Shown here: positions 3 to 46,692 of the stretch, piece after piece
Numbering within the stretch: position 1 is the stretch's first letter
Layout: each line of letters begins with the position of its first letter
Source: Phyllobates terribilis
Lineage: Eukaryota
Length of the DNA: 64,000 nucleotides
Assembly: GCF_046119375.1 (NCBI RefSeq)
Contig: NW_027362773.1
Coordinates: 174,530,001-174,594,000 of the forward strand
Reading direction: 5' to 3'
Position numbers and translations under genes: made by a program
Notes under the pieces: generated by a model
Database searches by the model: none
The model's input: the letters and a program-made list of their open reading frames with translations, nothing else
Told to the model about the DNA's origin: nothing

Positions 3-239
3 GTCTTCGTGACCAGGAGAGACGTTGAGTCCCACCTACCGGAGGGACACAGAGGTCGTGACCTGTATGTAGGGGACGAGGTCACCTTCACCCGGCACAA
101 GTGTGCCAAAGGACCCTACGCCCTCCATGTGCATCGCCTGACGGAGGAGGAGCTGCGGTGTGAGGAGGAGCAAGAGGACCCGGACGGGTCTGAAGCTAAA
201 GGTAACCACAAAGAAAGAGCAGGAGGACGTCGTCGTTGA
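3..239 (+). CDS. C-terminal part of the CSD protein of copy 1 (VFVTRRDVESHLPEGHRGRDLYVGDEVTFTRHKCAKGPYALHVHRL...RRR*), 5'-partial
   Basis: Open frame running in from the window edge, homologous to 44765-45010; second half of a cold-shock fold. The GTG start called at 9 is not the real start. Confidence 0.8.
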   Translation, partial: VFVTRRDVESHLPEGHRGRDLYVGDEVTFTRHKCAKGPYALHVHRLTEEELRCEEEQEDPDGSEAKGNHKERAGGRRR

Positions 240-689
240 GTACAGCAGAGTAGAAGCTGTATATAGTTGCCCGTCGGGGCACAGTGAACCGTTGCTGCTA
301 ATATAGTCCCCGTTGGGACCAGAGAACTGAACTGTTAACCCGTGTGTCCCTATTCCCACTGACCGAGGACTGAGAGCGGTCATCCCTATTCCCATTACCT
401 GGCCGAGGACTGAGAGCGGCCATACCTCCCCTTGTATATAGTTGCGCTTTCTAAAGCGCCCCCTACTGGTTTTATGGGAAAACCATTTTCTTCAAGAGAC
501 AGTCGCACTTTACCCGGTCACAAGTTGCACCGTGACCGGAGGAACCAGAGACAAGAGTGTTATTTATGAAAAGTTTTATATGAAAAGTTTTATATGATGT
601 TTTATTATGTTGTTTATGCAAAAATTGTATGTTTTGGTGTTTTTTGTATCTTACAGCCCGAGGACGTGCTGTGATTTACCAGGGGGGAA

Positions 690-1891
690 TGTAGCACCCT
701 GAGGATTCGGCTGCTACAGGGGTATTGCACCTCAACCCAGAGGTGTGATGTTCCACTCCCGGGTAAGGATGGAGTGTGGAACTGAGCTCAGAAAGCTGCA
801 TGCACTACACACATCCCATTTCCGAGGAACAGACCAACGGTACTCCCACTTAGAAATGTGCAGGTACGACCGAGTCTGTTCCTGGCTGGAGTGGGAGGGG
901 GGTGGTACATCCCAGTAGTGTAGGGGCAGATAGGGGGAGCAGCCTGGGTAAAGATAGGAGCTCATTGGGTGCTGGTCACCTGAGCTCACACATAGAGGGA
1001 GTATTTAAGGTGGGCACCATCTAAGATCAGGGTCAGTCTGTCAGCCTTTTGTCAGAGCAGAGCAGAGGAAGAGAGCAGAGGAGAAGAGCAGCTCCAAGGC
1101 CCAGAGAGAGAGAGGAGAAAGAAAGACCCAGAGGGGGAGAAAGAAGGAACTCTGAGAGCCCAAACTAAATCAAAGGGTGAAGAGTTGGCAACAGGGTACC
1201 GGATCCCAAGCTGGCAGAGGCTACAGTACACCTTAGCCAGAGACCGGAGGTCGTGGGCAGGATCTGCCACGATCACCCACTAAATCCACCCGGAAGGCAT
1301 ACCACGAATAGGGTCAGGAAAGCCAGAGAAGGTTTTGCCAACAAGAGGCCCGAGGGAGCCGGACATAGGTGGATCCCTGGTGGGGAAGGCCAGAGACGAG
1401 GACAGGTCAGAACGGGAGCTCAGAACCACGCTCCAGAACTACTTGGGGGTTGGCCGAGTCCAGGACCTGGTGGACGCAGCACGGCTCGGGTGGTCACTCA
1501 AGGCCGGAGTGACCGGAACATCTGCAGTAAGTAAAGAACCCTGAACTGCACAACCCGACTCTGTCTCTGATTACCATCATCCCTGCACTTCCACAACCAC
1601 CATCCTCTGCACCTGACCCCCTGAGGCTATACCCCTCCCGTTGGGGGTTATACTACCTAAGCTGCACAAACACCATCAGCCTCAGTGGACCCTGCTGCAG
1701 CGGCGGCCGTAGTGACCGCAATTCAACGGGTGGCGTAGTCGACATAAAGAACATCCAGTAGCATCATAGGACTGCCACACACTGAGCTTGACACCCTGGG
1801 CACGGACCGGGTCACCGCCACTCGGAGACTACAACCCCCATCTGATCCGGCTCCGGGTATCCCCAACAACACTGGCCCAGGGGGCGCGTCA
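690..1891 (+). repeat. 3' LTR (1202 bp) of CSD element copy 1
   Basis: TG...CA termini, PPT directly upstream, TATA-like gagtatttaagg, agtaaa poly(A)-like signal, homology to 41802-43022. Confidence 0.9.
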
Positions 1892-6706: not shown

Positions 6707-7186
6707 GGAGTGATGTGATCACCAGGGTGGGGCTAGAGTATGAGGTGTGGTCTCAGGTCATTATATCATTGGGGGCGGGGCTGGAATATAAGGGATGTGG
6801 TCTCATGTCATATCAGTGATGTAATCACTGGGGGCGGGGCTGGAGTATAAGGGGTGTGGTCTCATGTCATTATATCAGTGATGTCATCACCGAGGGCGGG
6901 GCTGGAGTATAAGAGGTGTGGTCTCATGTCATTATACCAGTGATGTCATCACCAGGGGTGGGGCTGCAGTATAATGGGTGTGGTCTCATGTCATTATACC
7001 AGTGATGTCATCACCAGGGGTGGGGCTGCAGTATAATGGGTGTGGCCTCATGTCATTATGTCAGTGATGTCATCACCAGGGGTGGGGCTGCAGTATAATG
7101 GGTGTGGCCTCATGTCATTATGTCAGTGATGTCATCACCAGGGGCGGGGCTGCAGTATAAGGGGTGTGGCCTCATGTCATTATATC
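6707..7186. repeat. Degenerate ~58-bp tandem repeat related to the 62-bp satellite
   Basis: About 8 units of cagtgatgtcatcaccaggggtggggctgcagtataatgggtgtggtctcatgtcattatat, sharing cagtgat...ggggcggggct with the 62-mer. Confidence 0.8.
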
Positions 7187-8128
7187 ACATTTCAATAGCT
7201 CACTTGCCATCTTTGAGCCTGTCACAGAAGAAGACGTTACCCAGCTCCTCATTTCTTCTCAACCTACAACCTGCAACAGTGACCCCATTCCCTCACATCT
7301 CCTGCAGTCCCTCTCACCGGTGGTCACCACTCACCTGACTAAAATAATTAACCTCTCTCTTTCTTCAGGTATCTTTCCCTCTTCTTTTAAACATGCCATC
7401 ATAACCCCTTTACTTAAAAAAACATCCCTGGACCAGAACTGCGCTGCCAACTACAGACCTGTTTCCAATCTTCCCTTCATCTCTAAACTCCAGGAACGCC
7501 TGGTCCACTCCCGCCTAATCCGCTATCTCTCAGATAACTCTCTTCTTCTCTTCTTGACCCTTTACAATCCGGTTTCTGCTCCTCACACTCTACTGAAACT
7601 GCCCTCACTAAAGTCTCTAACGATCTACTAACAGCTAAATCTAATGGTCACTGCTCCCTGCTGATCTCCTGGATCTCTCTGCAGCATTCGACACTGTGGA
7701 TCACCAGCTCCTCCTCACTATGCTCCGCACTATCGGCCTCAAGGACACTCTTCTCTCCTGGTTCTCCTCCTACCTCTCTGACCGCTCCTTCACTGTGTCT
7801 TTTGCCGGCTCCTCCTCCTCTAACCTCCCCCTTACTATTGGGGTCCGCAGGGCTCAGTCCTCGGCCCCCTCCTCTTCTCTGTATACACTGCCCCTATTGG
7901 ACAAACCATCAGCAGATTCGGTTTTCAGTACCATCTCTATGCTGACGACACCCAACTATACACCTCTGCTCCGGACATCACTCCTACCCTAATACAAAAT
8001 ACCGAGGATTGTCTGTCCGCTGTGTCTAGCATCATGTCCTCCCTCTATCTGACACTGAATCTCTCCAAAACTGAACTTCTTGTGTTTCCCCCCTCTACTA
8101 ACCCAACTCTACCTAACATGGAAATTAC

Positions 8129-8305
8129 AAAAGAGAGAACCAGGTGATGGCGGTGACTTTGCCATCAAGTGAGATCACGGTGCAGGACCTTCAGGTTGCT
8201 CATAAGTAAAAAAAATGTTTTGATTATTCACCCTAATATAAAACAATAAAACCTATAAACACAACGCGTTTCGGCTTTTTGTAGCCTTCTTCAGGTGTGA
8301 CATTG
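8129..8305 (-). mobile_element. Penelope-like terminal fragment inserted in the L2, with a hammerhead motif
   Basis: Flanked by a 14-bp duplication with one mismatch (aacatggaaattac 8115-8128; aacattgaaattac 8306-8319). Minus strand reads acac-CTGAAGA-aggct-acaaaa-agcc-GAAA-cgcg-tt-gtgt. Confidence 0.7.
8256..8298 (-). ncRNA. Minimal type I hammerhead ribozyme motif of the Penelope-associated kind
   Basis: CUGANGA and GAAA cores, stem II ggct/agcc, stem I acac/gtgt, palindromic cgcg in stem/loop III. One extra A follows the core and the cleavage triplet is GUU. Confidence 0.6.
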
Positions 8306-8494
8306 AACATTGAAATTACTTTGGAGGGTTCAACCATAACTCTCAGCAGCACGCCCGCTGCCTGGGGGTCATATTCGACTCTAACCTTTCCTTTACTCCC
8401 TATATCCGATCACTCACTCGCTCCTGTCACCTGTATCTTAAAAACATCTCCAGAATCCGATCTTTTCTCACCTTTGAAGCCGGTAAAACTCTTA

Positions 8495-9577
8495 GGCTGT
8501 GTGCGCACTATGCGTTCCGCAGAAACACTTAGAAAAACGCTTGGCAGAAGGTCTGCCATGTTCCCCAATGATAATCTGCATGTGCACATGCTGCGGAAAT
8601 TTCCGCTGCGGATTATCATTGCGCAAAAATCTGCAGCACAACCATTAATTTTGCGTAATCGCGGCGTTTTAGCCGCCATTGACTTAAATTGGATCGCATA
8701 ACATCCGCATCGCTACATGTGCACATGCGGATATTATGCGATTCTATGCGCGGATGGTACCCAGGTCTAGAGAAGAGGAGACTGTCATCTGACCCGGGTA
8801 CCATAGTACCTGTAAAAAAAAAGAATTAAATTAAAAAAACCTTTATACTCACCTTTCCGGCGCCCCCGGCCTGATCTCAGTGGCGCTGCTGTCTCCTTGG
8901 CTTCCGGCGGTGGTCTGCAAGGACCTTCCATGATGTCATTTAGTCATGTGATGGTCACGCGACCGCTGATGTTAGTGGTCAGGTGATGGTCGCGTGACCT
9001 TCACATGACTAAATGACGTCATGGAAGGTCCTTTTTAGGGCACCGGGAGCCGCCGAACATACCAGACGCATCGCTGAGGAGACCAGGGGCCATCAGAAGG
9101 TGAGTATAATGTTTGTTTTAATTTTTTTTTACTATTGATGCTCACAACTTGGTCACACTAAGTTACTAACAACCATGCCGGTTACATGGATTTATATAGT
9201 GTGACCAAGTTGTCAAGCACTTTCCAAGTGATGCTAAAATGGCTTGTCAACCCGCATGCGGAAATGCAAGTGAAGAACGCTTCACATCCACATGTCCCTG
9301 GCAGGAAAACCGCATGTACAATCCGCATGTACAATCCGCATGCACAATCCGCATGCACAATCCGCATGTACAATCCGCATGTACAATCCGCATGTACAAT
9401 CCGCATGTACAATCCGCATGTACAATCCGCATGCACAATCCGCATGCGCAATCCGCATGTGCAATCCGCATGTACAATCCGCATGTACAATCCGCATGTA
9501 CAATCCACATGTACAATCCGCATGTACAATCATGTCAGGAAAAATCCGCAGCATTTCTGCATCGTGGGCACACAGCC
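8495..9577. mobile_element. PIF/Harbinger-type MITE
   Basis: TIRs ggctgtgtgcgcac / gtgggcacacagcc, TTA duplicated on both sides (8492-8494, 9578-9580); the L2 reading frame resumes across it. Confidence 0.88.
9311..9530. repeat. 13-bp tandem repeat (aatccgcatgtac), about 17 copies, inside the MITE
   Basis: Read directly; it generates the repetitive ORFs at 9182-9884. Confidence 0.95.
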
Positions 9578-10046
9578 TTACTGTCGCTCTTATCAGTCTC
9601 TTCTGGACTACTGCAACTCTCTTCTGATCGGTCTCCCTCTTACCAAACTTTCTCCTCCTCTCCAATCCGTCCTGAATGCGGCAGCCAGGGTCGTATTTCT
9701 GTCCAGCCGCTTCACCGATGCCTCCATCTTGTGCCAGTCATTACACTGGTTACCCACTCGCTACAGGCTCCAATATAAACTCCTCTCTCTCACCCACAAA
9801 GCTCTCCACAGTTCTGCACCGCATTATATCTCCTCTCTCATCTCTATCGCCCTACACGTGCCCTCCGTTCCACAAATGACCTAAGACTAACATCCCCCAT
9901 AATCCGAACCTCGCACCTCCGTCTCCAAGACTTCTCTCGTGCTGCGCCAGTTCTCTGGAATGCTCTACCCCAGACGATCCAACTGATCCCTAGCCCCCAC
10001 GTCTTCAAGTGCGCTTTAAAAACCCATCTCTTTAAACAAGCGTACC

Positions 10047-11229
10047 TGTCAGGGAACAACACCCACTTTTGGGTCAGACCTTGCAGCTCTCTGGCGCCCC
10101 CTTATCCTGCTGGTCAAGCACGGTATTGACCGAGGATAAGCACAGGCGCAGCTGCTCTAATTTATGTCGACTATTGCGGCACGTGATGTGACAGGACGTA
10201 TATATACCACCAGTTCCTTCCAGGAACGTATATATACCTCCGACCAGCCACCCTCAAACCACAATATCACATAAATACTGGTATACTACCACCACCGATC
10301 GCTTAATAGGTGGATCGGGTACCCGTTAGGTAACGTGAATTAGCGGGTGAGGAACGTGTTTGCTCGACATAGGACAAGAAGAACGAAGCTGGTAAATAAT
10401 AATGATTTACTCCCAAAAGGGGTGCAGCGTTTACAAAAGATATACAAGATATTATAAAAGAGACAATGTACATACATGCATAAACAGTTATTAAAATAAA
10501 AGGGATAAGTGATAGCAAAACCTGCGCCACGTGGTGATGGTCTCAGATTCTGTGGGGGGGACGGCTCCCCGGAAAGTAGATGTGATTCCTTCACGTAGCG
10601 TGTAGGGCATGGGTCTGACGTCCCTGGTTGGAATGACTTGGAAAATGGCCGTTCTGGTTTTTACTAAAGGGGCCAAACGATTAGGAGACACCCATATTGT
10701 TTACCTCACACGGGGGCTCGGTTTTGTGAAACCACCCAGCTGCATAGCACATAAAAACCTTCAGATTTCATATCTTGGTGTGGGGGGGTCCCACATCCAA
10801 GATGGAGACATCATGTTGGCCGTCACCACTATTCATGAAGATTGATATCAAATATGAAATCGCTATGATGCTCAGAAGCTCAGAATCCATTATCCCAGTT
10901 CCCGGTCGTTTCTCAGTTATGCAAGATATACTATTATAATGGGAAAAAGGTGAGCATTCCAAAAATGTGGTCCCTGTGTTTGTGACCGTCATGTGCGTTT
11001 TTAAATTCTACATTAACTGTACAAACTTTTAAACAATGGGAATTTTGGAGGGAATAACTATTTTGAACTAGAAGCTGCTCTGCGCTGAGGGTTTACGACG
11101 GTAATAAAAATTCTTAGGGTGGGGGCAAGCACTGCAGTTCTATGTCTTACAAATGGACTGGGGGGGGTGGAAATTTGAGACAGCTCTCATTTTTTTAAAG
11201 CTAGGACCAACAATACATTTTGCCTGACA
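10047..11229. mobile_element. Solo LTR (1183 bp), family unidentified, inserted at the end of L2 ORF2
   Basis: Inverted termini tgtcagg...cctgaca, 5-bp TSD gtacc (10042-10046, 11230-11234), no coding content. Confidence 0.8.
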
Positions 11230-13812: not shown

Positions 13813-14127
13813 TTTGCTGTCGCTGAAGACTCTTCATTTCCAAAGTGCTGTCAGCGGTCAATTATGGTTTGAAAGCAAATCGCCGCCGCGGCCAGAATAA
13901 CGCGCCGCTCCACAAGCCTGAAAGTATCCGGACAGATTCCTGGGACAGCGCTGCTGCTCGTGAGAGGAAAAGTGTCGCTGCATCACGGGGATTGGCGCAG
14001 CGGTATGATTTACCCCTCCAATCAGGGCATTGATCTATTGCCTACAATTATGGAAGAAAGTATTTACCCCCCAGATTTTACTTCTAAGTAATCTTATCAC
14101 ACTTTTCACACTGATTGTACCCCTAAA

Positions 14128-16140: not shown

Positions 16141-17103
16141 TGACGCGCCCCTGGGCCTGTGTCGCGCTGCGTTGCGCACGCGGGAGCTTACCCGGAGCCG
16201 GATCTCTTGAGGGTTGTAGTCTCGTGGCGGTGACCCGGTCCGTGCCCAGGGAGTCAAACTGGACGGCAGTAGATGTAGTACGACTACGCCACCCGTTGAA
16301 TGCAGCTTATGGAGCTGCCGCTGCAGGACAGTCCGCTGAGGCCGGTGGATGGATGGTGCAGCGGGGATGGTATAACCCCCAACGGGAGGGGTATGGCCTC
16401 AGGGCAGCCGACGTGGATGATGGGGGTAGCAGGAACCACTCAGAGACGGTGCGGTGTAATTCAGGGTCTTTACTGGTAACAACGATAGACCCTCCCGGAG
16501 TACTTGCTAGCGAACGGGGCCTGGTCAGTCCTTGAGCAGATGGGATCTCCCCTGGCCAGGCGGAGTTGTAGGCCTCCCAAACTGACTGTACTCTTCTGGC
16601 TACCTTGCTAGAAGCGGATATAAGTAGCCCACGTCCCTGAGTGTACCGTGTGGTGCTCACCCGTATGGCCGGTGACTCGGGGCCTTCTAATGGCTTCCGC
16701 TCCACGATGGCGGTGCTGGTCCCACGCGTGTGACCGTGCCTTCGGGCTTCTGGGCCAGAGGACCTGAAATCCCCTGCCTGACGGATTCTGCTGCTGGGTA
16801 GGAGTTAGTCCCCACAGCCTCGGACTCCGGGTCCGGTAAAGAATCTTCTTAGTCAGGGCGAACTCTGCAGCTGCCAGCCCCTGACTCCTTGTAACTCTGC
16901 TGTTTCCTATGCTGCTTCTTGTCTCCACTCTCCTTGTTTGACTCACTCTGCCTCAGCCCCGGGTTTATATAGGGGAAGTTCTTCCCCTCCCAAGACTGGG
17001 CAGGAGGTGTGGCATGCACAGGATCCCTGACCAAAGGACCTCCCACCTGCTCTCAGACATAACATTACATTACTGTGGAAAACCAGACCCCTGGGGTGCC
17101 ACA
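16141..17103 (-). repeat. Gypsy 3' LTR (963 bp)
   Basis: tgtggcacc...gcgcgtca on the minus strand; PPT aggggggaa at 17104-17112. Confidence 0.96.
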
Positions 17104-17461
17104 TTCCCCCCTAGTGAAATTTAGTACTCCGGGACTAAACACATTTAGAAAAACATAACAAGGCAAAAAACATTAATAATACAATAAGAAAACATATAAA
17201 GATGGTTACGGCGTGTCCGCAACCGGGTGCAGTCTCTGAAAGAAGCAAGGTGTCCATTTCACCAACACAGGGAGACGTAACCAGGTAGGGGTCTGTCCTA
17301 CCCCGAGTCCTTAACAGTCTCTAGTCCATCCTGGGTTACGCTCCAACTATGTACAAGGATTCCCGGTCAATCCACCAAGGTTTCCTAAAAACATCTGGAA
17401 ACACAAAATTATACACAAGCAACAATACACAGATAAACATAAATAAAACTATTTTTACACT

Positions 17462-19276
17462 TCAAATTCTCCAGCGTGCGGGTAACTGGCCTCTAGTGGC
17501 CCTAGTGGACCTACGGAGCTGACTGTCTGGCCCTGAACTACAGGGTGTAGGAGCTGTCAAGGGTAAACTGGGCAGCTGTCTACCGGCTCTTTGTCTCACT
17601 AGGGGTACGGCAGGCTCACTATAAGCAGAGGGTTGATTCTCCTGTTCTACTCGTGTGGAGTCTTCTGCCTCCTGGACCGGCTGTTCTTCCAGCTCTACCC
17701 GTTGCTCCGTTGGTTCTTGGGATGATGGTTGGAGGAAGGTGAGTACGGGTACCACAACTGCACCATTGACTTGAGTCCAAGACCGAGGGAAGTCCCCGAG
17801 CACGGTACTAACCATATCTTCCCTTTCTCCCACGGGTCGATGGTCTTCTTGTTCCTCTTCAGGGTTCCTCAGTTGTTCGGGACACTTCTTCAGGTGGTCC
17901 CGGGACACAATGGCTGTGGTTTCCCCTCCGTCTTTACTGATGGTACAGACCTTCGGGTTCTCGTGGCTTGAGGGCAGTACGGTGTACGGGTCCTTCTCCC
18001 ACTGGTCATCCAACTTGTGGAGCCGTCTTTTCCTCTTCAAGACCTGCTCTCCGGGTACCAGGGGAACAGCGGGAGCATACTGGTTGTAAGTCTTCTCTTG
18101 TCTTTCCCTAGCCTGACAGAGACTTCGCTCCACGCTCTCTTGTACTCTCCGGTACTGCTGCTGCCTCTCTGTGTCCCAGTCTGTTTCTGGTGAAGTGTCC
18201 TCAGGTGTCAGGACTCCCATTTCCAGGTCAACAGGTAACTTACCAGGTCTCGCCCTCATTAGGTAAGCCGGGGTACAGTTGGTGGAACCTACCGGGATGT
18301 GGTTGTATAGGTCCACCAGATCGGGCAACTTCTCAGGCCACAGACTGCGTTCTTCCAGGGGCAATGTTTTTAGAAGATCCATTACCACCTGGTTCATTTT
18401 TTCACAAAGTCCATTAGTTTGCGGATGGTAGGGTGTCGTCCTTATCTTCCGGCAGCCATACAGATTGCAGAATTCCTGGAAGACCTCCGCTTCAAAGGCA
18501 GGTCCCTGGTCCGTCAGCACTTGGTCCGGGTACCCGTGTGGACGGCAGAAGTGCTGCTGGAAGGCTCTAGCTGCTGTTTGAGCCGTTAAGTCCTTGACGG
18601 GGACGACAACCAAGAACTGGGAGTAATGATCCACGATGGTTAACGCGTAGACGTAGCCACTTCTGCTTGGGGTCAGTTTTACATGATCCAAGGCTACCAG
18701 TTCCAACGGTTGCCGGGTGACGATGGACTGCAGGGGAGTCTTCTGGCTGGCCCGGTCCTTCCTTCTCAGATTGCACGGGCCACAGTCTCTGCACCACTTC
18801 TCGATGGTTCCCCTCATGCCTACCCAGTGGAACCGCTCGCGCAGCAGGAACTCCAGCTTTTTCCACCCGAAGTGTCCAGCTCCGTCGTGGTATGCCTCCA
18901 TCACCATGGCTGCGTCTCTTCGTGGCACCACTACTTGCCAGAGTAGTTCATGCGTCCAGGAGTTGACCATTCTGCGGCACAACTTCCCCTTGTAAAGGAA
19001 TAGTCGACTCTTCTCCGCCCATAGTTGTTTGGCTTCCTCCGGAGCGTCTGGTTCAAGGCGAGCCTCCGGCCGAGTCAGCATCTCCTTCACTAGTCGGACG
19101 GCAGGGTCGCTGTCTTGCGTTTCCGCCCAGTTGTAGTGGGGTAAGGGGTTCAACGTAGCAGCCTGCTTACCCCTTACCCGGTGGGAATACTGGATAGTCC
19201 CATGACGGTGGAACGCAGGGAGTTCAACTTCTTCCAGTCCCTCCGGATCTTCTCCTTCGTCCGGCAGGTTGGGCAT
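17462..19276 (-). CDS. pol: Gypsy integrase part of pol, cut off from RT-RH by an in-frame double stop
   Basis: HHCC motif (HDGAGH...CGPC), catalytic core ALDH / DQGPAFE / NGLCE, C-terminal RRSTR...PARW; same frame as 19337-21517. Confidence 0.92.
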   Translation of the reverse strand: MPNLPDEGEDPEGLEEVELPAFHRHGTIQYSHRVRGKQAATLNPLPHYNWAETQDSDPAVRLVKEMLTRPEARLEPDAPEEAKQLWAEKSRLFLYKGKLCRRMVNSWTHELLWQVVVPRRDAAMVMEAYHDGAGHFGWKKLEFLLRERFHWVGMRGTIEKWCRDCGPCNLRRKDRASQKTPLQSIVTRQPLELVALDHVKLTPSRSGYVYALTIVDHYSQFLVVVPVKDLTAQTAARAFQQHFCRPHGYPDQVLTDQGPAFEAEVFQEFCNLYGCRKIRTTPYHPQTNGLCEKMNQVVMDLLKTLPLEERSLWPEKLPDLVDLYNHIPVGSTNCTPAYLMRARPGKLPVDLEMGVLTPEDTSPETDWDTERQQQYRRVQESVERSLCQARERQEKTYNQYAPAVPLVPGEQVLKRKRRLHKLDDQWEKDPYTVLPSSHENPKVCTISKDGGETTAIVSRDHLKKCPEQLRNPEEEQEDHRPVGEREDMVSTVLGDFPRSWTQVNGAVVVPVLTFLQPSSQEPTEQRVELEEQPVQEAEDSTRVEQENQPSAYSEPAVPLVRQRAGRQLPSLPLTAPTPCSSGPDSQLRRSTRATRGQLPARWRI

Positions 19277-19336
19277 CCTGGACAGGGCATCCGCGTTAGT
19301 ATTGGAGCGTCCTGCCCGGTATTTGATTGTGAACTA

Positions 19337-21598
19337 CTAGTTGGACAGACGGGCCATCCACCTCTGCTCCAGGGCACCGAGTCTTGCCGTGTCCAGGTGT
19401 ATCAACGGGTTGTTATCCGTGTATACGGTGAACCGGGAAGAAGCGAGGTAATGCCTAAAGCGCTCGGTGACTGCCCATACCACGGCCAGGAACTCTAACT
19501 TAAATGAGCTGTAATTCTCGGGGTTCCTTTCGGTGGGTCGCAGTTTTCGGCTGGCATAGGAGATTACTCGTTCTCTCCCCTGCTGAATCTGGGACAGTAC
19601 GGCTCCTAGCCCGATGTTACTGGCGTCGGTGTAGAGGATGAAGGGCTGGCTATAGTCCGGGTACGCCAAGATTTCATCCCCCGTGAGGGCCATCTTCAGC
19701 TGGCGGAAGGACTCCTCTTCTAGCTCTTCCCATTTGAAGGGCGGCTTCTGGTTCTTGGCCTTCCGGGACTGGCCTATCAGGAGGTCCTGCATAGGCGCTG
19801 CCTTTTTGGTGAAACCGGGAATAAACCTTCGGTAGTAGCCTACCAACCCTAGGAACTGCCGCACTTCTTTTACGCTGGAGGGGCTTGGCCATCCCTTAAT
19901 TGCGGTGATCTTATCGGGGTCGGGAGCCACTCCGTCAGCGCTCACCACGTGTCCCAGGTATTGCACCTTTGGTTTCAGGAGGTGACACTTGGAGGGTTTC
20001 ACCTTTAGGCCGTAACTCGCCAGAGCTTCGAACACCTCCGCCAGGTGTTTCAGGTGGTCCTCATAAGTTTTGGAGTATACGATGACATCGTCCAGGTACA
20101 ACAGGACCGTCTCAAAGTTTCTGTGGCCCAGACAGCACTCCATTAATCGTTGGAAGGTTCCTGGGGCGTTGCAGAGTCCGAACGGCATGCAGGTGAACTC
20201 GCTAAGTCCCATCGGGGTGGTGAATGCGGTCTTCTCCCGGTCCGCCTCTGCTACAGGAACCTGCCAGTACCCGCTAGTGAGATCCAAGGTAGAGAAGAAG
20301 TTAGCAGATCTTAAAGCAGCCAATGACTCCTCTATCCTTGGTAAGGGGTACGCATCCTTGTGTGTGATACGGTTGATTTTCCGGTAATCTACACACATCC
20401 TCATGGTGTTGTCTTTCTTTTTGACTAAAACTAGTGGGGCTGCCCAGGGGCTACAGCTATCCCGGATTACCCCAGCCTCCTTCATGTCTCGAAGCATCCC
20501 CTTGGCGTGTTGGTAGTGTGCAGGGGGTACGGGTCGATACCTCTCTTTTATGGGAGGATGATCTCCCGTGGGGATGTGGTGTTCTACCCCCTTGACCCGC
20601 CCAAAGTCTAACGGGTGTTTACTAAACACTCTCTCATACTCTTGAACCACCCGATAGACTCCTTGTTTCTGATGTGAGGGAGTGGAATCAGTACCCAAAT
20701 GTAGTTGCTGACACCAGTCCTCCATGTCTTTCTTAGAGCCGTTACCTTCCTCCGGGTGAGATGGAGGCAAGGGTTCCACAGATTGTATAGAATTTTGATT
20801 AGTGGTATATAATTTGGCTAGCGTGGCATACCGGGGCAGGTACACTTCCCTCTCCCCGATATTTATTATGCGAATGGGCACCCTCCCATGGCGTACATTG
20901 ACCACCCCCCGTGCTGTCAAAATGGTGGGCCTACTGTCTGAGTAAACTGGTTCCACCATTGCCTGGTAATCTCTTCCTCTCAGACCAATAGCTGCCCGGC
21001 ACCAAATCATCATTTCACTTTTTGGGGGCATGGCAATAGGAAAAGGGTCACACATTCTTACGCTACCAATCTCACCGCCGGAGAGTTCCACTTGTTGCCG
21101 TTGCATCAGTGCCCGGATCTCTTTCTGGAGCACCCGCTGCTCGCCGGAGCTGGCGTTCTTGGCAACCTGCTGTAAAAGGAAAATCACCTCTGCAAGACAA
21201 TTTTCAATTACGTTAGTTCCCAGAGTTATTTTTGGGTGACTCTCATGTTTATCAATATCTACAATGATCAGTCCCTGTGCGGCCAGTTCGACTCTACCGA
21301 TTTTGAGGGCCACCTCTTTAAATCCGATCTGTGGCACGGGCTGGCCATTGCTGGCGATGATACTCAAGTCGTCGTCAGGGTAGTGGGTAATATCCGAGTC
21401 ATTCCAGTACTGCTTGAAGAGCACGTACGGGATGGTGGTGACCTGTGACCCGGTATCCAGTAGGGCACTCATGGGAATGCCATCCAGTACCACAGGCAAG
21501 ACTGGACGTCCTCCCACATATCTGTCGCGCCAGTTCGATGGGCCTGGTGATCTTTTTCCTGGGGGTTGGCCCTCTACCCCAGGTTGTGCCCGTTTAAA
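19337..21598 (-). CDS. pol: Gypsy pol: protease, RT, RNase H (entered by -1 frameshift from gag)
   Basis: LLDTGSQ, CVDYRKIN, LDLTSGYWQ, MPFGL, YLDD, YTDAS, YTDNNPL; ends at TAG TAG (19339-19334). Confidence 0.95.
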   Translation of the reverse strand, partial: FKRAQPGVEGQPPGKRSPGPSNWRDRYVGGRPVLPVVLDGIPMSALLDTGSQVTTIPYVLFKQYWNDSDITHYPDDDLSIIASNGQPVPQIGFKEVALKIGRVELAAQGLIIVDIDKHESHPKITLGTNVIENCLAEVIFLLQQVAKNASSGEQRVLQKEIRALMQRQQVELSGGEIGSVRMCDPFPIAMPPKSEMMIWCRAAIGLRGRDYQAMVEPVYSDSRPTILTARGVVNVRHGRVPIRIINIGEREVYLPRYATLAKLYTTNQNSIQSVEPLPPSHPEEGNGSKKDMEDWCQQLHLGTDSTPSHQKQGVYRVVQEYERVFSKHPLDFGRVKGVEHHIPTGDHPPIKERYRPVPPAHYQHAKGMLRDMKEAGVIRDSCSPWAAPLVLVKKKDNTMRMCVDYRKINRITHKDAYPLPRIEESLAALRSANFFSTLDLTSGYWQVPVAEADREKTAFTTPMGLSEFTCMPFGLCNAPGTFQRLMECCLGHRNFETVLLYLDDVIVYSKTYEDHLKHLAEVFEALASYGLKVKPSKCHLLKPKVQYLGHVVSADGVAPDPDKITAIKGWPSPSSVKEVRQFLGLVGYYRRFIPGFTKKAAPMQDLLIGQSRKAKNQKPPFKWEELEEESFRQLKMALTGDEILAYPDYSQPFILYTDASNIGLGAVLSQIQQGRERVISYASRKLRPTERNPENYSSFKLEFLAVVWAVTERFRHYLASSRFTVYTDNNPLIHLDTARLGALEQRWMARLSN
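21540..21598 (-). promoter_or_regulatory. -1 ribosomal frameshift signal: U-UUA-AAC followed by a predicted H-type pseudoknot
   Basis: Heptamer at 21598-21592, 8-nt spacer, stem cctgggg/ccccagg, loop gggcc pairing with downstream ggccc; the -1 frame is the pol frame. Confidence 0.75.
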
Positions 21599-22554
21599 GA
21601 ACAGTACCTTTCCATATGTCCGGATTGATTGCAGCGGCGGCAGATGGGTCGTCCGTCCTCGCTGTATCGGTCACTGGGTCTTCCTCTGGCCGGTGGGGTC
21701 CTCCTTGGTCGACGCCACGGGATGTCCTCCGGTCCGGATGCCAGCTGGATCTTCCCTGGGGTGGAAACCTGTAAAGACTGCACAGTTCGGGTTAGCGCAG
21801 CAACGCTCTTAGCTAGCTCTTGGACCTGATGGTGTAGGTCTGGAGCCGGGTCATTGTCCAAAGCCTGCGCATCAGCTCCCACAGGCCCTGCTGACAAGGG
21901 CGCCGCCTCCTGGTAGTAAGTGGTAGTGGGGCGTCTGTGGGTCACAACGCCACCTGGTGCCGGTTCTCGGAGCACCCGGATGGCTCTGTCCTTGAACTGT
22001 GCAAAGTCCAGATGGGGATCCTGTAAGGCCATTGCCCGCAACTGGGTTCGGTGGGCATTGCAATATAAACCCTCTATAAATTGTTCAGTCAACAGCCTGT
22101 CCTCGTTTCCCACCCCATCAGGGTCGGTCTGCTTTATGGCCCTCAGGGCCTCTTGTAGGTTTAGTGCATAGTCCCTTATACTCTCATGCGCTCGCTGCTT
22201 GCACCCGTAGAATCTAAGCTTAATCTCGGCTGAGGTGCGGGTATCAAAGGTGTCCTTCAGCCGGGTTAGTATCCCTGCGACAGTCTTCCTCCCAGGTGGC
22301 CAGGATTTTACTTCCCTTTTGGCTGCCCCGGTTAGTTGGGCCACCAGGATGCTCACTTTTTGCTCTTCTGTGAGGGGGTACACCTGGAAGAGGCTATCCA
22401 GCTTTTCTCTAAAGTCATGCAGGGTATGTGACTCCCCTGAGTACTGGGGTAGCCAGGCTGCTCCCGGGATATAGGGCATGGTGAAGGGCATAACTGCAGC
22501 AGCGGTAGCGCTGGCGGGGGTTGGGGCAGTGAAGCTCTCCTCCGTATCCGACAT
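21574..22554 (-). CDS. gag: Gypsy Gag (326 aa)
   Basis: Capsid-like KQRAHESIRDYALNL and EQFIEGL; CCHC knuckle CRRCNQSGHMERYC; position between leader and pol. Confidence 0.93.
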   Translation of the reverse strand: MSDTEESFTAPTPASATAAAVMPFTMPYIPGAAWLPQYSGESHTLHDFREKLDSLFQVYPLTEEQKVSILVAQLTGAAKREVKSWPPGRKTVAGILTRLKDTFDTRTSAEIKLRFYGCKQRAHESIRDYALNLQEALRAIKQTDPDGVGNEDRLLTEQFIEGLYCNAHRTQLRAMALQDPHLDFAQFKDRAIRVLREPAPGGVVTHRRPTTTYYQEAAPLSAGPVGADAQALDNDPAPDLHHQVQELAKSVAALTRTVQSLQVSTPGKIQLASGPEDIPWRRPRRTPPARGRPSDRYSEDGRPICRRCNQSGHMERYCSLNGHNLG

Positions 22555-22995
22555 CTTCCTCCCCCCTAGTGGACCGTGGCCTACCTTGCGATGATCCTCT
22601 TCCGTAGGCCGCGGCTCCGCAGTGGATCGTCAGGGTTGAGGACCTTCCGTCGCGCTCCTGTGACGTCGGCGTCTGCTGGGCTCCTTCCAGGACCTTACGC
22701 AACGTCCGGACGTGAGGCGGGGCTTCAGTTCTCGCGCGCTTTCAGAGTCCACGCCCCTCTTCTTCCCGCGCGGCGTCCCCAAGATGGCGTCCAACGGCGG
22801 GAAAACTCCACGGATGGCGGGAAGAAGGCCGAAGATGGCGCCGGATGGCGGGAAACTTCACCGATGGCGGGAAGAAGGTAGAAGATGGCGCCGGATGGCG
22901 GGAAACCTCCACGGATAGCGGGAATCTTCACCACTGGTAAGTTTGAACAGTCTTTGCTTTTCAGGCACGCAGTACCCGGTGGTTGCGGGCACGAG

Positions 22996-23013
22996 ATCCT
23001 GCCGACTACGCCA
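22996..23013 (-). promoter_or_regulatory. Primer-binding site, tRNA-Ser (TGGCGTAGTCGGCAGGAT)
   Basis: 18-nt complement of the vertebrate tRNA-Ser 3' end as I recall it (...ATCCTGCCGACTACG-CCA), 4 nt from the LTR. Confidence 0.9.
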
Positions 23014-23017
23014 AAGT

Positions 23018-23980
23018 TGACGCGCCCCTGGGCCTGTGTCGCGCTGCGTTGCGCACGCGGGAGCTTACCCGGAGCCGGATCTCTTGAGGGTTGTAGTCTC
23101 GTGGCGGTGACCCGGTCCGTGCCCAGGGAGTCAAACTGGACGGCAGTAGATGTAGTACGACTACGCCACCCGTTGAATGCAGCTTATGGAGCTGCCGCTG
23201 CAGGACAGTCCGCTGAGGCCGGTGGATGGATGGTGCAGCGGGGATGGTATAACCCCCAACGGGAGGGGTATGGCCTCAGGGCAGCCGACGTGGATGATGG
23301 GGGTAGCAGGAACCACTCAGAGACGGTGCGGTGTAATTCAGGGTCTTTACTGGTAACAACGATAGACCCTCCCGGAGTACTTGCTAGCGAACGGGGCCTG
23401 GTCAGTCCTTGAGCAGATGGGATCTCCCCTGGCCAGGCGGAGTTGTAGGCCTCCCAAACTGACTGTACTCTTCTGGCTACCTTGCTAGAAGCGGATATAA
23501 GTAGCCCACGTCCCTGAGTGTACCGTGTGGTGCTCACCCGTATGGCCGGTGACTCGGGGCCTTCTAATGGCTTCCGCTCCACGATGGCGGTGCTGGTCCC
23601 ACGCGTGTGACCGTGCCTTCGGGCTTCTGGGCCAGAGGACCTGAAATCCCCTGCCTGACGGATTCTGCTGCTGGGTAGGAGTTAGTCCCCACAGCCTCGG
23701 ACTCCGGGTCCGGTAAAGAATCTTCTTAGTCAGGGCGAACTCTGCAGCTGCCAGCCCCTGATTCCTTGGAACTCTGCTGTTTCCTATGCTGTTTCTTGTC
23801 TCTACTCTCCTTGACTGACTAACCCTGCCTCAGCCCCGGGTTTATACAGGGGAAGTTCTTCCCCTCCCAAGACTGGGCAGGAGGTGTGGCATGCACAGGA
23901 TCCCTGACCAAAGGACCTCCCACCTGCTCTCAGACATAACATTACATTACTGTGGAAAACCAGACCCCTGGGGTGCCACA
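23018..23980 (-). repeat. Gypsy 5' LTR (963 bp)
   Basis: Identical to 16141-17103 except in one ~86-bp patch. Confidence 0.96.
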
Positions 23981-24941
23981 CATGGATTACAGACAGTAGA
24001 GCAGAGCTGCAGTATGAAGCGTGGATTACAGACAGTAGAGCAGACCTGCAGTGTAAAGCATGGATTACAGACAGTAGAGCACAGCTGCAGTATGAAGCGT
24101 GGATTACAGACAGTAGAGCAGAGCTGCAGTATGAAGCATGGATTACAGACAGTAGAGCAGAGCTGCAGTGTAAAGCATGAATTACAGACAGTAGAGCAGA
24201 GCTGCAGTATGAAGCGTGGATTACAGACAGTAGAGCAGAGCTGCAGTATGAAGCATGGATTACAGACAGTAGAGCAGACCTGCAGTATGAAGCGTGGATT
24301 ACAGACAGTAGAGCAGAGCTGCAGTATGAAGCATGGATTACAGACAGTAGAGCAGAGCTGCAGTATGAAGCATGGATTACAGACAGTAGAGCAGAGCTGC
24401 AGTATGAAGCATGGATTACAGACAGTAGAGCAGACCTGCAGTATGAAGCGTGGATTACAGACAGTAGAGCAGAGCTGCAGTATGAAGCGTGGATTACAGA
24501 CAGTAGAGCAGAGCTGCAGTGTAAAGCATGAATTACAGACAGTAGAGCAGAGCTGCAGTATGAAGCGTGGATTACAGACAGTAGAGCAGAGCTGCAGTAT
24601 GAAGCGTGGATTACAGACAGTAGAGCAGAGCTGCAGTATGAAGCATGGATTACAGACAGTAGAGCAGAGCTGCAGTATGAAGCATGGATTACAGACAGTA
24701 GAGCAGACCTGCAGTATGAAGCGTGGATTACAGACAGTAGAGCAGAGCTGCAGTGTAAAGCATGGATTACAGACAGTAGAGCAGAGCTGCAGTATGAAGC
24801 GTGGATTACAGACAGTAGAGCAGAGCTGCAGTGTAAAGCATGGATTACAGACAGTAGAGCACAGCTGCAGTATGAAGCGTGGATTACAGACAGTAGAGCA
24901 GAGCTGCAGTGTAAAGCATGAATTACAGACAGTAGAGCAGA
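23981..24941. repeat. 39-bp minisatellite, right part
   Basis: Same unit as 14128-16140, resuming in register after the TSD. Confidence 0.97.
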
Positions 24942-41801: not shown

Positions 41802-43022
41802 TGTAGCACCCTGAGGATTCGGCTGCTACAGGGGTGTTGCACCTCAACCCAGAGGTGTGGTATTCCACTCCCGGGTAAGGATGGAGTGTGGAACTGAGCT
41901 CGGTAGGCTGCATGCACTACACACATCCCATTTCCGAGGAACAGACCAACGGTACTCCCACTTAGAAATGTGCAGGTACGACCGAGTCTGTTCCTGGCTG
42001 GAGTGGGAGGGGGGTGGAACATCCCAAGTAGTGTAGGGGCAGATAGGGGGAGCAGCCTGGGTAAAGATAGGAGCTCATTGGGTGCTGGTCACCTGAGCTC
42101 ACACATAGAGGGAGTATATAAGGTGGGCACCATCAAAGAACAGGGTCAGTCAGTCAGCCACAGTCAGTCAGTCTGTGAGTCTTTGCAGAGAAGTCAGAGG
42201 AAGAGCAGAGCAGAGAAGCCTGAGCCAGAGTGAGAGAGGAGAAAGCAAGAAAGACCCAGAGGGGGAAACAGAAAAGGAACTCTGAGAACCCAAAGTCCAT
42301 CAGCGGGTGAAGAGTTGGCATCAGGGTACCGGAACCCAAGCTGGTGGGGGCAAAAACACACCCCAGCCAGAGACCGGAGGCCGTGGGCAGCGTTTGCCGC
42401 GGCCACCCACCACATCCACCACGAAGGCATACCACGTGGAGGGTCAGGGAACCCAAGGCCAAGGGTCTCCCAACAGAAGGCCCGAGGGAGCTGGACCTGG
42501 GTGGATCAATAGTGGGGACGGCCAGTGAAAGGACAGAAGGAGAGCTCAGGGTCACGCTCCGGACTCGCTTGGGGGTTGGCTGGATCCAGGACCTGGTGGA
42601 TGCAGCACGGCTCGGGAGGTCACTTGAAGCTGGAGTGACCGGAACATCAGCAGTGAGTAAATACCCTTAACTGCATAACCCGACTCTGTCTTCCTTTAAC
42701 ATCTATGCTGCACCACCACAACCCCCATCCTCTGCACCTGACCCCCTGAGGCTATACCCCACCCGTTGGGGGTTATACCATCAATAGCTGCACCAACACC
42801 ATCAGCCTCAGCGGACCCTGCTGCAGCGGCGGCCATAGTGACCGCAATACAACGGGTGGCGTAGTCGACATTAAGAACTAAATAACATCTGTAGGACTGC
42901 CACATACAACTGAGTTTGACACCCTGGGCACGGACCGGGTCATAGCCACTCGGAGACTACAACCCCCATCTGATCCGGCTCCGGATATTCCCCCTAAAGA
43001 ATATGGCCCAGGGGGCGCGTCA
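41802..43022 (+). repeat. 5' LTR of CSD element copy 2 (1221 bp)
   Basis: tgtagcacc...gggggcgcgtca; about 10 differences from the 3' LTR. Confidence 0.95.
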
Positions 43023-43026
43023 ACTT

Positions 43027-43044
43027 TGGCGTAGTCGGCAGGAT
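43027..43044 (+). promoter_or_regulatory. Primer-binding site, tRNA-Ser (TGGCGTAGTCGGCAGGAT)
   Basis: Identical to the Gypsy PBS, including the 4-nt actt spacer. Confidence 0.9.
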
Positions 43045-43234
43045 CTCGTGCCCGCAACCACCGGGTACTGCGTGCCTGAAAAGCAAAGACTGTTCAAACT
43101 TACCAGTGGTGAAGGTTTCCCGCCATCCGGCGCCATCTTCTACCTTATTCCCGCCATCTGCAGAGTTTCCCGCCACTGGGAAGCGGTTCCCGCCATTTCC
43201 AAAGGTTTCCCGCCTTGGAAGAGCGGACGCCATT

Positions 43235-45010
43235 ATGGGCGTGCCAGAGGGTGGTGAGAGGCCACCTCCCATCGTGGGCCAGGACCGAAAATGGCGCCAA
43301 AAGTGGAAACCGCCCCCACCAACAGAGACTGTGATGCTAGAGGTGTCTGTCAGCGTGAAAGAACCGCCCCTGGAGCTGACAATCACCAAGTGGCCCCGGG
43401 ACCGCCCTCGAGGTGGGAGGAGACGAAAGGAGAGAACAAAGATGGGTGCCGCCTGGAGCAGTCTAGAGCGAGCGCACCCGGAGGCAAGAAGCCTGGAGAA
43501 GAATATCGGAGGAGCTTACCCGGAGATGGCGAGAAAGCAGAGCAGCACCGGCCCGCTGGCCAGGAGCCTGCTGGAGACGACTGTAGGAGAGCAGAGCAGC
43601 ACCGACCCGTTGGTCAGGAGCCTGCTGGAAACAACGACCCCACTAGGCCTAGTGGAGGTCCTAGCACAGCTCCCCCGAGACCGGGAGTGTGCACAGACCG
43701 CTCTGGAGGGCCTCGCAAGGAGGATGGCCCGGGTGCAGCGAGAGATGTTGGCGGAGTGGAGCCGTGAGATGGCCCAGCAGACCGAGACCTGTGAGCGGAG
43801 CACGCCACCCGAGACGAGGAGACAGACCGCCTCTGAGGATGGCGCGGGAGGACTGAAGGCCGGAGACGGCGCCGAGAAGGGAGCCGAACGAGTGGAGGCA
43901 GGTAAAGGGGACGTCTATACCCCAGACCGGGAAACCGCGTACCTGCCCCAGCTCCCCGTCGCAGAGCCCGAAGTCTATCCTGCCGTGCCCGTCGCTGCAA
44001 CGTCACCGCCGCAGACTAGGCCTCAAACGGGAGCCGCGACCCCTGTGACGTCACACGCCTCGACCCCGAGCGTGACCAAGCAGGAAGTACCACCAGCCTG
44101 GTCGCAAGGCCTAGTACCCCCGGGCGCCGCAATACCAACAGCGCCCCCTACCTCCGCGGAGCCCCCGGCCTGGTCGCAGGGCCAAGTAGCCCAGGGCGCC
44201 GCCGTCCTTACGGTGCCCTTTACCTTCCAGATACCCCAGGCCTGGCCGCAAGGCCCGGGCAACCCGGGCGCCACCACCACCGCGCCCATAAGACCAAGAG
44301 TGCCGCATCTGGGAGAGGACCTGTACGCCCAACATACGTGCCCGGATGGGCAGCCATTTATATGGCCACCGGAGTTCCACCATCCCCGACTCCGGAGAGA
44401 GAGACCCCTGGATGAACCCCTGATCCCGGCTCCAAAGCCCGTAAAGAGGATCTCGCCCCCGCTAGCGGAAGCACAGTTTGAGTGGGACCCCACCGGAGAA
44501 GATCTTATGGGGTTCACTCAAGAGACTCGGGCAGCTGCAGCGGAGCGTGCTGAGTGCTGCCGCCAACAGCTCGAGGACTTCGAGAGGGAGCGGAGAGAGA
44601 GGCGGGTCCGGGAACAGCTAGCTCAAGTAAAGAGCGCGGAGCAGAAGAGCCGGGCCAGGAGAGACCCCCGTGCAGCGCATAGTCCCCGCACCACCGGGAC
44701 TGTGATAAAGTTTAACCTGCAGCATGGGTGGGGCTTCATCCGAGACCACCACACCCTAGGCGACGTCTTTGTGACCAGAAGAGACGTTGAGTCCCACCTG
44801 CCGGAGGGACACAGAGGTCGTGACCTTTACATCGGGGACGAGGTCACCTTCACCCGGCACAAGTGTGCCAAAGGTCCCTACGCCCTCCATGTGCATCGCC
44901 TGACGGAGGAAGAGCTGCGGTGTGAGGAGGAAGAACAAGAGGACCCGGACGGGTCTGAAATTAGAGCCAAAGGTAACCAAAAAGCAAGAGCAGGAGGACG
45001 CCGTCGCTAA
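43235..45010 (+). CDS. 591-aa protein (from the first ATG) with Pro/Ala/Thr-rich middle, predicted coiled coil and C-terminal cold-shock domain
   Basis: Uninterrupted frame. GTVIKFNLQHGWGFIRDHHTLGDVFVTRRDV...LYIGDEVTF...KGPYALHV (44696-44902) matches CSD RNP1 (GFGFI) and RNP2 (DVFVH) with Y-box-like spacing. Start uncertain: ATG 43235 or 43442, both in good Kozak context. Confidence 0.82.
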   Translation: MGVPEGGERPPPIVGQDRKWRQKWKPPPPTETVMLEVSVSVKEPPLELTITKWPRDRPRGGRRRKERTKMGAAWSSLERAHPEARSLEKNIGGAYPEMARKQSSTGPLARSLLETTVGEQSSTDPLVRSLLETTTPLGLVEVLAQLPRDRECAQTALEGLARRMARVQREMLAEWSREMAQQTETCERSTPPETRRQTASEDGAGGLKAGDGAEKGAERVEAGKGDVYTPDRETAYLPQLPVAEPEVYPAVPVAATSPPQTRPQTGAATPVTSHASTPSVTKQEVPPAWSQGLVPPGAAIPTAPPTSAEPPAWSQGQVAQGAAVLTVPFTFQIPQAWPQGPGNPGATTTAPIRPRVPHLGEDLYAQHTCPDGQPFIWPPEFHHPRLRRERPLDEPLIPAPKPVKRISPPLAEAQFEWDPTGEDLMGFTQETRAAAAERAECCRQQLEDFERERRERRVREQLAQVKSAEQKSRARRDPRAAHSPRTTGTVIKFNLQHGWGFIRDHHTLGDVFVTRRDVESHLPEGHRGRDLYIGDEVTFTRHKCAKGPYALHVHRLTEEELRCEEEEQEDPDGSEIRAKGNQKARAGGRRR

Positions 45011-45470: not shown

Positions 45471-46692
45471 TGTAGCACCCTGAGGATTCGGCTGCTACAG
45501 GGGTATTGCACCTCAACCCAGAGGTGTGATATTCCACTCCCGGGTAAGGATGGAGTGTGGAACTGAGCTCGGTAGGCTGCATGCACTACACACATCCCAT
45601 TTCCGAGGAGCAGACCGACGGTACTCCCACTTAGAAATGTGCAGGTACGACCGAGTCTGTTCCTGGCTGGAGTGGGAGGGGGGTGGTACATCCCAAGTAC
45701 TGTAGGGGCAGATAGGGGGAGCAGCCTGGGTAAAGATAGGAGCTCATTGGGTGCTGGTCACCTGAGCTCACACATAGAGGGTGTATATAAGGTGGGCACC
45801 ATCAAAGAACAGGGTCAGTCAGTCAGCCACAGTCAGTCAGTCTGTGAGTCTTTGCAGAGAAGTCAGAGGAAGAGCAGAGCAGAGAAGCCTGAGCCAGAGT
45901 GAGAGAGGAGAAAGCAAGAAAGACCCAGAGGGGGAAACAGAAAAGGAACTCTGAGAACCCAAAGTCCATCAGCGGGTGAAGAGTTGGCATCAGGGTACCG
46001 GAACCCAAGCTGGTGGGGGCAAAAACACACCCCAGCCAGAGACCGGAGGCCGTGGGCAGCGTTTGCCGCGGCCACCCACCACATCCACCACGAAGGCATA
46101 CCACGTGGAGGGTCAGGGAACCCAAGGCCAAGGGTCTCCCAACAGAAGGCCCGAGGGAGCTGGACCTGGGTGGATCAATAGTGGGGACGGCCAGTGAAAG
46201 GACAGAAGGAGAGCTCAGGGTCACGCTCCGGACTCGCTTGGGGGTTGGCTGGATCCAGGACCTGGTGGATGCAGCACGGCTCGGGAGGTCACTTGAAGCT
46301 GGAGTGACCGGAACATCAGCAGTGAGTAAATACCCTTAACTGCATAACCCGACTCTGTCTTCCTTTAACATCTATGCTGCACCACCACAACCCCCATCCT
46401 CTGCACCTGACCCCCTGAGGCTATACCCCACCCGTTGGGGGTTATACCATCAATAGCTGCACCAACACCATCAGCCTCAGCGGACCCTGCTGCAGCGGCG
46501 GCCATAGTGACCGCAATACAACGGGTGGCGTAGTCGACATTAAGAACTTAATAACATCTGTAGGACTGCCACATACAACTGAGTTTGACACCCTGGGCAC
46601 GGACCGGGTCACAGCCACTCGGAAGACTACAACCCCCATCTGATCCGGCTCCGGATATTCCCCCTAAAGAATATGGCCCAGGGGGCGCGTCA
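45471..46692 (+). repeat. 3' LTR of CSD element copy 2 (1222 bp)
   Basis: Direct repeat of 41802-43022, preceded by aggggggaa. Confidence 0.95.

Follow-up and report, generated by a model that had tools for sequence, protein, structure and literature searches.

As judged from variation among its copies, a family of LTR retrotransposons in Phyllobates terribilis carries a single open reading frame (ORF) on which purifying selection acts strongly as the family multiplies. The protein that it encodes includes a cold-shock domain (CSD); the element depends, as we propose, on a Gypsy partner. The family was studied from a stretch of 64,000 nucleotides (assembly GCF_046119375.1, contig NW_027362773.1, positions 174,530,001 to 174,594,000, forward strand), hereafter the window, which holds the end of one copy (W1) and the whole of another (W2). 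A preliminary description of the window had proposed purifying selection on the protein during the family's own replication, and a functional cargo rather than a passive capture. In 78 ORFs, with 10 multi-step codons left out, CSD variants private to one copy had a pN/pS of 0.84 (27 non-synonymous, 13 synonymous) and shared variants 0.08 (20 and 99; P = 6e-9). Singletons are near neutral and shared variants are constrained; hence, selection acts during replication and not after insertion. This agrees with the proposal and supports a functional cargo in the evolutionary sense.

Results

Two copies of the element in the window

The following features were located in the window.

3..239, + strand: 3' end of the W1 ORF, with the last 44 CSD codons (3-134), an acidic/basic tail, and a TGA stop
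240..689, + strand: W1 3' non-coding region, with short repeats and a polypurine tract at its end
690..1891, + strand: W1 3' LTR, TG...CA, ~1.2 kb, with 3 mismatches to its own 5' LTR
16141..23980, - strand: Gypsy element, likely the helper family, with gag (PNMA/CCHC matches) and PR-RT-RH-IN
41802..43022, + strand: W2 5' LTR, with the TATG target duplication at 41798-41801
43027..43158, + strand: W2 PBS and Gypsy-type leader segment; the PBS (43027-43044) is identical to that of Gypsy
43235..45010, + strand: W2 ORF, intact, 591 aa, with the domain layout given below
44471..44689, + strand: charged segment of W2 (aa 413-485), a predicted ~50-residue helix; dN/dS 0.14
44690..44902, + strand: cold-shock domain of W2 (aa 486-556), PF00313 at 32.1 bits, above the curated cut-off of 27; dN/dS 0.07
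45471..46692, + strand: W2 3' LTR, with a polypurine tract before it and the TATG duplication at 46693-46696
1892-~5400, 14033-16140, 23981-24950, 41590-41800, and 46693-50190: minisatellite arrays

The beginning of W1 lies outside the window, ~3.06 kb upstream (L031:3939), and the target duplication of this copy, CTCA (4 bp, 1892-1895), directly follows the 3' LTR. It is not an intact copy, because its ORF is frameshifted ~20-28 codons past the family's conserved ATG, outside the window; 580 codons are still open from a later ATG despite the frameshift. The W2 ORF comprises, in order, a basic N-terminus, short repeats, a helical domain (aa 119-182), a Pro/Ala linker, a long helix, the CSD, and a tail. 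The two W2 LTRs differ by 9 mismatches and 1 gap.

The preliminary description had counted eight differing codons among the 53 aligned between 3-161 and 44765-44923, and the recount was exact. Seven are synonymous (TTC/TTT, AGG/AGA, CTA/CTG, CTG/CTT, TAT/TAC, GGA/GGT, and GAG/GAA), against an expected share of 0.29 (P = 0.001 for these 53 codons), and the eighth is a V/I change with two base changes (GTA/ATC). The tail indels (3 nt and 6 nt) keep the frame and the stops are TGA and TAA, as had been described. The claim that the differences are mostly synonymous holds in the 53 codons, but the signal is slightly flattered there because 18 codons at the start of the CSD fall beyond the window edge. 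When the upstream stretch (L031) is added, the entire CSD (71 codons) has 10 synonymous and 5 non-synonymous differences; the counts are 11 and 7 in the long helix and 7 and 11 in the linker.

Strong divergence of the two copies in the R region of the LTR had also been claimed. The divergence is present in the middle of the LTR, with 11-19 differences per block of ~90-100 aligned columns at window positions ~1080-1570 versus 1-4 per block in the first ~300 nt; we infer that the divergent stretch is R from its TATA- and poly(A)-like motifs. In the LTRs of both copies (1524-1536 and 42648-42662), a splice-donor-like GCAGT(A/G)AGT and an AGTAAA poly(A)-like signal overlap. Each LTR also has an internal partial copy of the PBS (GGTGGCGTAGTCG; 1723-1741 and 42852-42868), which is found in the Gypsy LTR as well; in a related family whose PBS differs, the internal LTR copy (L233:4085, oriented) matches that other PBS. 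The 3' non-coding region (250-450 and 45030-45250) contains three motifs of the TATAGTYSC type together with two GACCGAGGACTGAGAGCGG(T/C)C repeats; they are conserved between W1 and W2, and are a candidate landing site for the CSD.

W1, W2, and the Gypsy element all lie inside minisatellite arrays of ~59-bp and 39-bp units. Further element remnants were seen by eye in the translations at 27250-31580, 57880-59125, 62060-62984, 7160-10130, and 56100-56816; presumably, they are a retrovirus-like pol, broken and with a macro-domain-like piece, a transposase of Harbinger type, a fragment resembling Penelope, and pieces of LINE RT.

Anatomy, size, and age of the family

The CSD element is ~4.9-5.2 kb long, with LTRs of 1.2 kb (TG...CA ends) and a 4-bp target duplication. 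The PBS is located 4 nt past the 5' LTR, and the ORF normally starts 252 nt past the PBS. The internal region (~2.4 kb) holds one ORF (~530-630 aa), the 3' non-coding region, and a purine tract. An exact 4-bp target duplication was found in 53 of 66 scorable genome-order copies and a strict-motif PBS in 77 of 82 copies, with a PPT ahead of the 3' LTR. Gag, RT, RNase H, integrase, and protease are absent from the sampled elements, whose sole Pfam match is PF00313. No retroviral RT, gag, or env Pfam match was obtained with the ORF, and the signals fit a Gypsy. By these structural features, the CSD element belongs to the non-autonomous LTR retrotransposons and is neither an autonomous Ty3/Gypsy element nor an ERV. 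The PBS is presumably of the tRNA-Ser type; a genomic fragment complementary to it, with a TTGAAA loop, is present, but no Ser tRNA gene was confirmed by ARAGORN.

The leader motif of the family has 20,661 matches genome-wide (G000, 10.57 Gb), and all 40 newly fetched matches belong to the family. The degenerate CSD codon pattern has 6,436 exact matches in the same assembly and the Gypsy-type leader has 5,689. About 20,000 copies of 5 kb would amount to an estimated 100 Mb, or ~1% of the 10.6-Gb genome. LTR divergence has a median of 0.3% and a maximum of 1.5% (72 of 80 genome-order copies); older subfamilies have 3-12% LTR divergence and ~55% CSD identity. Related single-CSD proteins are labelled Phyllobates terribilis, Ranitomeya variabilis, R. 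imitator, and Anomaloglossus baeobatrachus. The literature searched and a preprint on the dyeing poison frog contain, in their available text, no account of the family; Repbase/Dfam or supplements (PMC12287698 table S6) may hold one. Four contig-only sequencing runs of uncertain kind, which cannot show transcription, cover the element.

Head-to-tail doubles ~3.1-3.7 kb apart, apparently with one middle LTR in common, were seen at L190/L191, L332/L333, L334/L335, and L337/L338. Another LTR family with a different PBS (L233, L240, and L242) has a short ORF whose initial Met coincides with the beginning of a related CSD (~55-63% identity), and the CSD of L234 is still more diverged (42%).

Selection on the ORF

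The main sample was the first 80 of 100 CSD-pattern matches listed on one contig (C1), in genome order. Forty-nine have an intact ORF, 29 are broken, and 2 have no recognisable start; 3 of the 29 are actually open, starting with GTG. Among 40 copies chosen by leader only, 28 are intact, 11 are not, and 1 has no start. The 11 comprise 6 deletions removing or cutting the CSD, 3 interrupted ORFs, 1 GTG start, and 1 full-length ORF missed by the motif filter. Most young copies are thus intact. First lesions of broken copies are nearly all private, and broken copies are slightly older than intact ones (P = 0.04).

Using our own MG94 fit rather than codeml, with no recombination or rate variation modelled, dN/dS in 50 intact copies (the 49 and W2) was 0.071 in the CSD, 0.14 in the helix, 0.25 in the helical domain, 0.28 in the pre-helix segment, 0.40 in the tail, 0.61 in the linker, and 0.62 in the N-terminus. 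On internal branches it differs from 1 in every segment except the N-terminus (P = 0.11). The CSD value is likewise low on terminal branches (0.10), which we attribute to sparse sampling. It is 0.069 in the 28 leader-chosen copies and 0.18 across 15 old and young copies. The values by domain are therefore far below 1 in the CSD, as selection on the protein would have it. Selection is strong in the CSD and helix, but it is not uniform along the protein, the Pro/Ala linker and the N-terminal 77 codons being at 0.6-0.7.

The 0-fold/4-fold ratio of the CSD is 0.15 for transversions only and 0.13 at non-CpG sites. Other reading frames over the CSD give 2.7-6.9, with the exception of the antisense frame that shares third positions (0.17). 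In the N-terminal 77 codons the ratio is 1.05-1.23; hence, the constraint there looks nucleotide-level rather than protein-level. GTG replaces the first ATG in a subgroup of copies (L152, L155, L182, L222-L224, L229, L280, and L288). Taken with how weakly the first 77 codons are constrained as protein, this subgroup suggests that the working start may lie downstream.

The contrast between singletons and shared variants extends to the helical domain (pN/pS 0.97 and 0.19-0.37, respectively) and is weaker in the helix, linker, and N-terminus, where singletons have 0.49-0.66. Length variants behave similarly: with the unreliably countable segment of the ORF tail and 3' region (1684-2154) excluded, 17 of 18 ORF length alleles found in more than one copy preserve the frame versus 8 of 19 private ones (P = 0.001), and in the 3' non-coding region 4 of 14 shared alleles have a length that would do so. 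The comparison of frameshifts suggested in the preliminary description thus points the same way.

Fold and residues of the CSD

In a model of the last 150 conserved residues (pLDDT 84), a helix of ~50 residues is accompanied by a five-strand barrel. With this predicted model, Foldseek returned CspA and YB-1 (E~1e-6 to 1e-5; TM 0.77-0.90 by target length). The ESM Atlas returned only generic CSD clusters, under 0.9. The domain has the RNP1 GxGFI and RNP2 VFV cores, a loop of Y-box length, and ~30-37% identity to Y-box/Csp proteins. Seven residues of the YB-1 CSD contact DNA (PMC7498358). Only F74 and F85 are kept in the frog element, with N67 in some subfamilies, and K118 is also kept. W65 is replaced by K and H87 by T/N; Y72 is changed to W and N70 to H. 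Given these losses and changes, nucleic-acid binding may be weak or altered. The protein is not a Y-box protein, since the W65/F74/F85/H87 surface is incomplete and the CSD is near the C-terminus. By sequence score, Csp (25.9 bits) and YB-1 (24.5) lie so near each other that no donor can be named. An intronless, partly duplicated copy of a multi-CSD gene, which we take to be CSDE1/Unr, was observed with single exons of its likely parent at L092-L099 (G000:C1:734.44 Mb; C2:702.8 Mb).

Gypsy partner and chimeric leaders

The CSD element and Gypsy have in common the PBS, the first ~45 nt of the leader, the purine tract, and the LTR tips; the 3' part of the LTR is 72-75% similar. Gag is located behind the Gypsy-type leader in 20 of 20 loci checked (17 full length). 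The pol of the Gypsy element in the window is broken by an in-frame stop (19334-19336) between RNase H and integrase.

The W2 leader is Gypsy-type from the PBS to 43158 and then continues as the family's own leader, switching at a shared TTCCCGCCATC repeat; this junction was found once in the genome. A second, different chimera is present at L154. Gypsy-type leaders thus occur in 2 of 78 CSD copies, which implies co-packaging of the two elements. Gene conversion from the neighbouring Gypsy was ruled out as the origin of the W2 leader, because this leader is without the 19-nt insert of the neighbour and matches other Gypsy copies instead. In standard LTR replication, a segment running from the PBS to a microhomology is what a minus-strand template switch in a shared particle would leave. 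We infer that the chimeric leaders arose by such switching in shared particles, and that Gypsy would supply Gag, RT, and integrase to the CSD element.

A deletion allele without the CSD

An in-frame deletion of ~600 nt between two CCCGGA motifs removes the helix and CSD. It was found in 281 copies, versus 8,688 with the site intact (~3%). Twenty-seven unlinked deletion copies were analysed after three tandem twins and L343 were dropped; the full-length control for distances was 29 copies, replacing an earlier set over-rich in W1/W2-like copies. On the 5'-flank tree, 14 changes account for the 27 copies, compared with a mean of 18.9 after shuffling (a value this low arose in 8 of 500 shuffles). 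The nearest-neighbour distance is 0.0465 for the deletion copies (27 of 281) and 0.0466 for the full-length copies (29 of 8,688, sampled ~30 times more sparsely); equal distances despite denser sampling argue against a clonal burst. The bases just 5' of the junction are alike in 27 of 27 deletion copies versus 18 of 30 full-length ones (P = 1.5e-4), one tail type is found in 16 of 27 versus 3 of 29 (P = 1.7e-4), and the shortened ORF is open through the junction in 26 of 27.

The common junction haplotype and tail type weaken the view that deletion copies are independent dead ends. Sharing of the junction haplotype suggests that the allele probably arose a few times and was then recopied into many backgrounds, probably by recombination with full-length partners and without bursting. 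The requirement for the CSD appears strong but leaky, with the deletion allele carried along at ~3%, which counts against strict self-only action.

Discussion

The sequence is conserved in the copies that multiply and not against one-off mutations; hence, the protein likely helps its own RNA to be copied by the partner. It should favour the RNA that encodes it, because broken copies would otherwise multiply freely. The explanation that we on balance prefer is that the protein of this gag- and pol-less element binds its own RNA via the CSD and improves its survival or its loading into helper Gypsy particles. The helper would supply the particle and the enzymes, the CSD protein would bind the RNA of its own element, and the bound RNA would gain a chance of packaging and copying in helper particles; the long helix may serve oligomerisation or docking.

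A bolder form of this explanation, which we put forward tentatively and rather doubt, is a satellite-like parasite of Gypsy, in which a captured RNA-binding protein replaced gag and pol, tags its own RNA during synthesis, and docks it in helper particles. If so, the CSD element would outnumber its helper about 3.6 to 1, would provide the first clear route of self-preference in an LTR element, and would support a defective-interfering deletion allele of its own.

Low dN/dS is also possible where activity is limited to one or two copies in each germ cell (PMC9073684). In that case an intact gene still benefits the source copy that carries it, and the protein could act cell-wide, stabilising retroelement RNAs, raising translation, or blunting silencing. 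This is conceivable, at well under even chances. That the CSD-less allele has spread demonstrates complementation in trans, the route to low dN/dS through few active copies has been discussed for LTR elements (PMC9073684), and bird retroviruses have repeatedly captured CSDs (PMC12287698). However, many subfamilies underwent amplification together, and recently (LTR divergence 0-1.5%), and the copies are mosaics, which implies co-expression of different copies and the helper. Gene-less derivatives would then be expected to take over, whereas no fewer than 28 of the 40 leader-chosen copies are intact.

It is unlikely that the ORF is an unrecognisably diverged Gag- or nucleocapsid-like protein that co-assembles with helper Gag, with the CSD in place of the zinc knuckle. 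Its position fits, since the sole ORF lies in the gag position right after the leader, and so may its layout, a helical N-terminal part and a C-terminal CSD of nucleic-acid-binding type. The ORF has no Pfam gag match at E<=1, however, and no similarity to helper Gag (best E 1.7), and most of it is a weakly constrained Pro/Ala linker.

Retention for the benefit of the host, as a domesticated Y-box-like gene family, is very improbable. Gene models with a CSD are annotated in several poison-frog assemblies, but the homologues are without gene names, inserted copies decay (near-neutral singletons; 29 of 80 broken and slightly older), and the constraint sits on variants common to dispersed insertions. 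Finally, we reject the idea that CpG decay, codon composition, constraint on the RNA, or CSD-motif sampling produced the synonymous excess: the element is CpG-rich, the first sample was picked by CSD codon pattern and intact ORFs, and the N-terminal 77 codons are constrained as nucleotides, but in the helix and CSD this reading is refuted by the site-class, frame, singleton, and leader-chosen controls, the effect being held by transversions and non-CpG sites, frame-specific, repeated in leader-chosen copies, and not seen in singletons, which arise by the same mutation process.

Loss of genes is usual in non-autonomous elements. The frog element retains a gene of captured type, with selection on it roughly matching the strength reported for gag/pol, and at an estimated ~1% of the genome, the family bears on genome expansion in poison frogs. 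Among plant elements, BARE2, Dasheng, soybean SNRE, and LARDs are high-copy non-autonomous LTR retrotransposons with an autonomous partner (PMC4079214). Like them, as far as the available text describes them, the CSD element has kept its LTRs, PBS, and PPT, has lost pol, has reached a very high copy number, and has exchanged sequence with its partner. Unlike them, it lives in an animal host, is without a gag remnant, carries one unrelated CSD ORF under measured purifying selection, and shows the exchange in the leader.

CSDs are also carried by bird endogenous retroviruses (46 ERVs), for which convergent, possibly adaptive capture has been suggested (PMC12287698). The frog element is likewise a retroelement carrying PF00313. 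The bird ERVs are RT-bearing and of few copies, and the word 'purifying' is absent from the available text of that study; the frog element is a probable Gypsy-dependent passenger with ~20,000 copies, the CSD protein as its sole gene, and quantified selection. The frog case shows that carrying a CSD can be adaptive for a retroelement, which the bird study only suggested. Like Y-box proteins (YB-1/YBX1 and YBX2) and bacterial Csp, the frog protein has the predicted five-strand CSD fold and the RNP1/RNP2 cores. Unlike in Y-box proteins, its CSD is C-terminal, behind a long helix, and the W65 and H87 equivalents are replaced.

A close parallel in the pattern of selection is the frequency-dependent selection of maize Sireviruses, in which pN/pS is near 1 for variants that are rare and drops to ~0.1 for those that are shared; it was read as selection during transposition, with a product that prefers its own element or few active copies per cell, and self-preference of LTR elements was called hard to explain (PMC9073684). 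The same fall from rare to shared variants is seen in the frog element. The maize genes are gag/pol of autonomous elements, whereas here the gene is an accessory gene of a non-autonomous element. Non-autonomous partners and CSD capture by retroelements are thus already known, and a sole-gene CSD element that is probably the passenger of a Gypsy is a variant not met in the literature searched, so far as its available text goes. With thousands of natural variants, it offers material for studying the means by which an LTR element gives preference to its own RNA.
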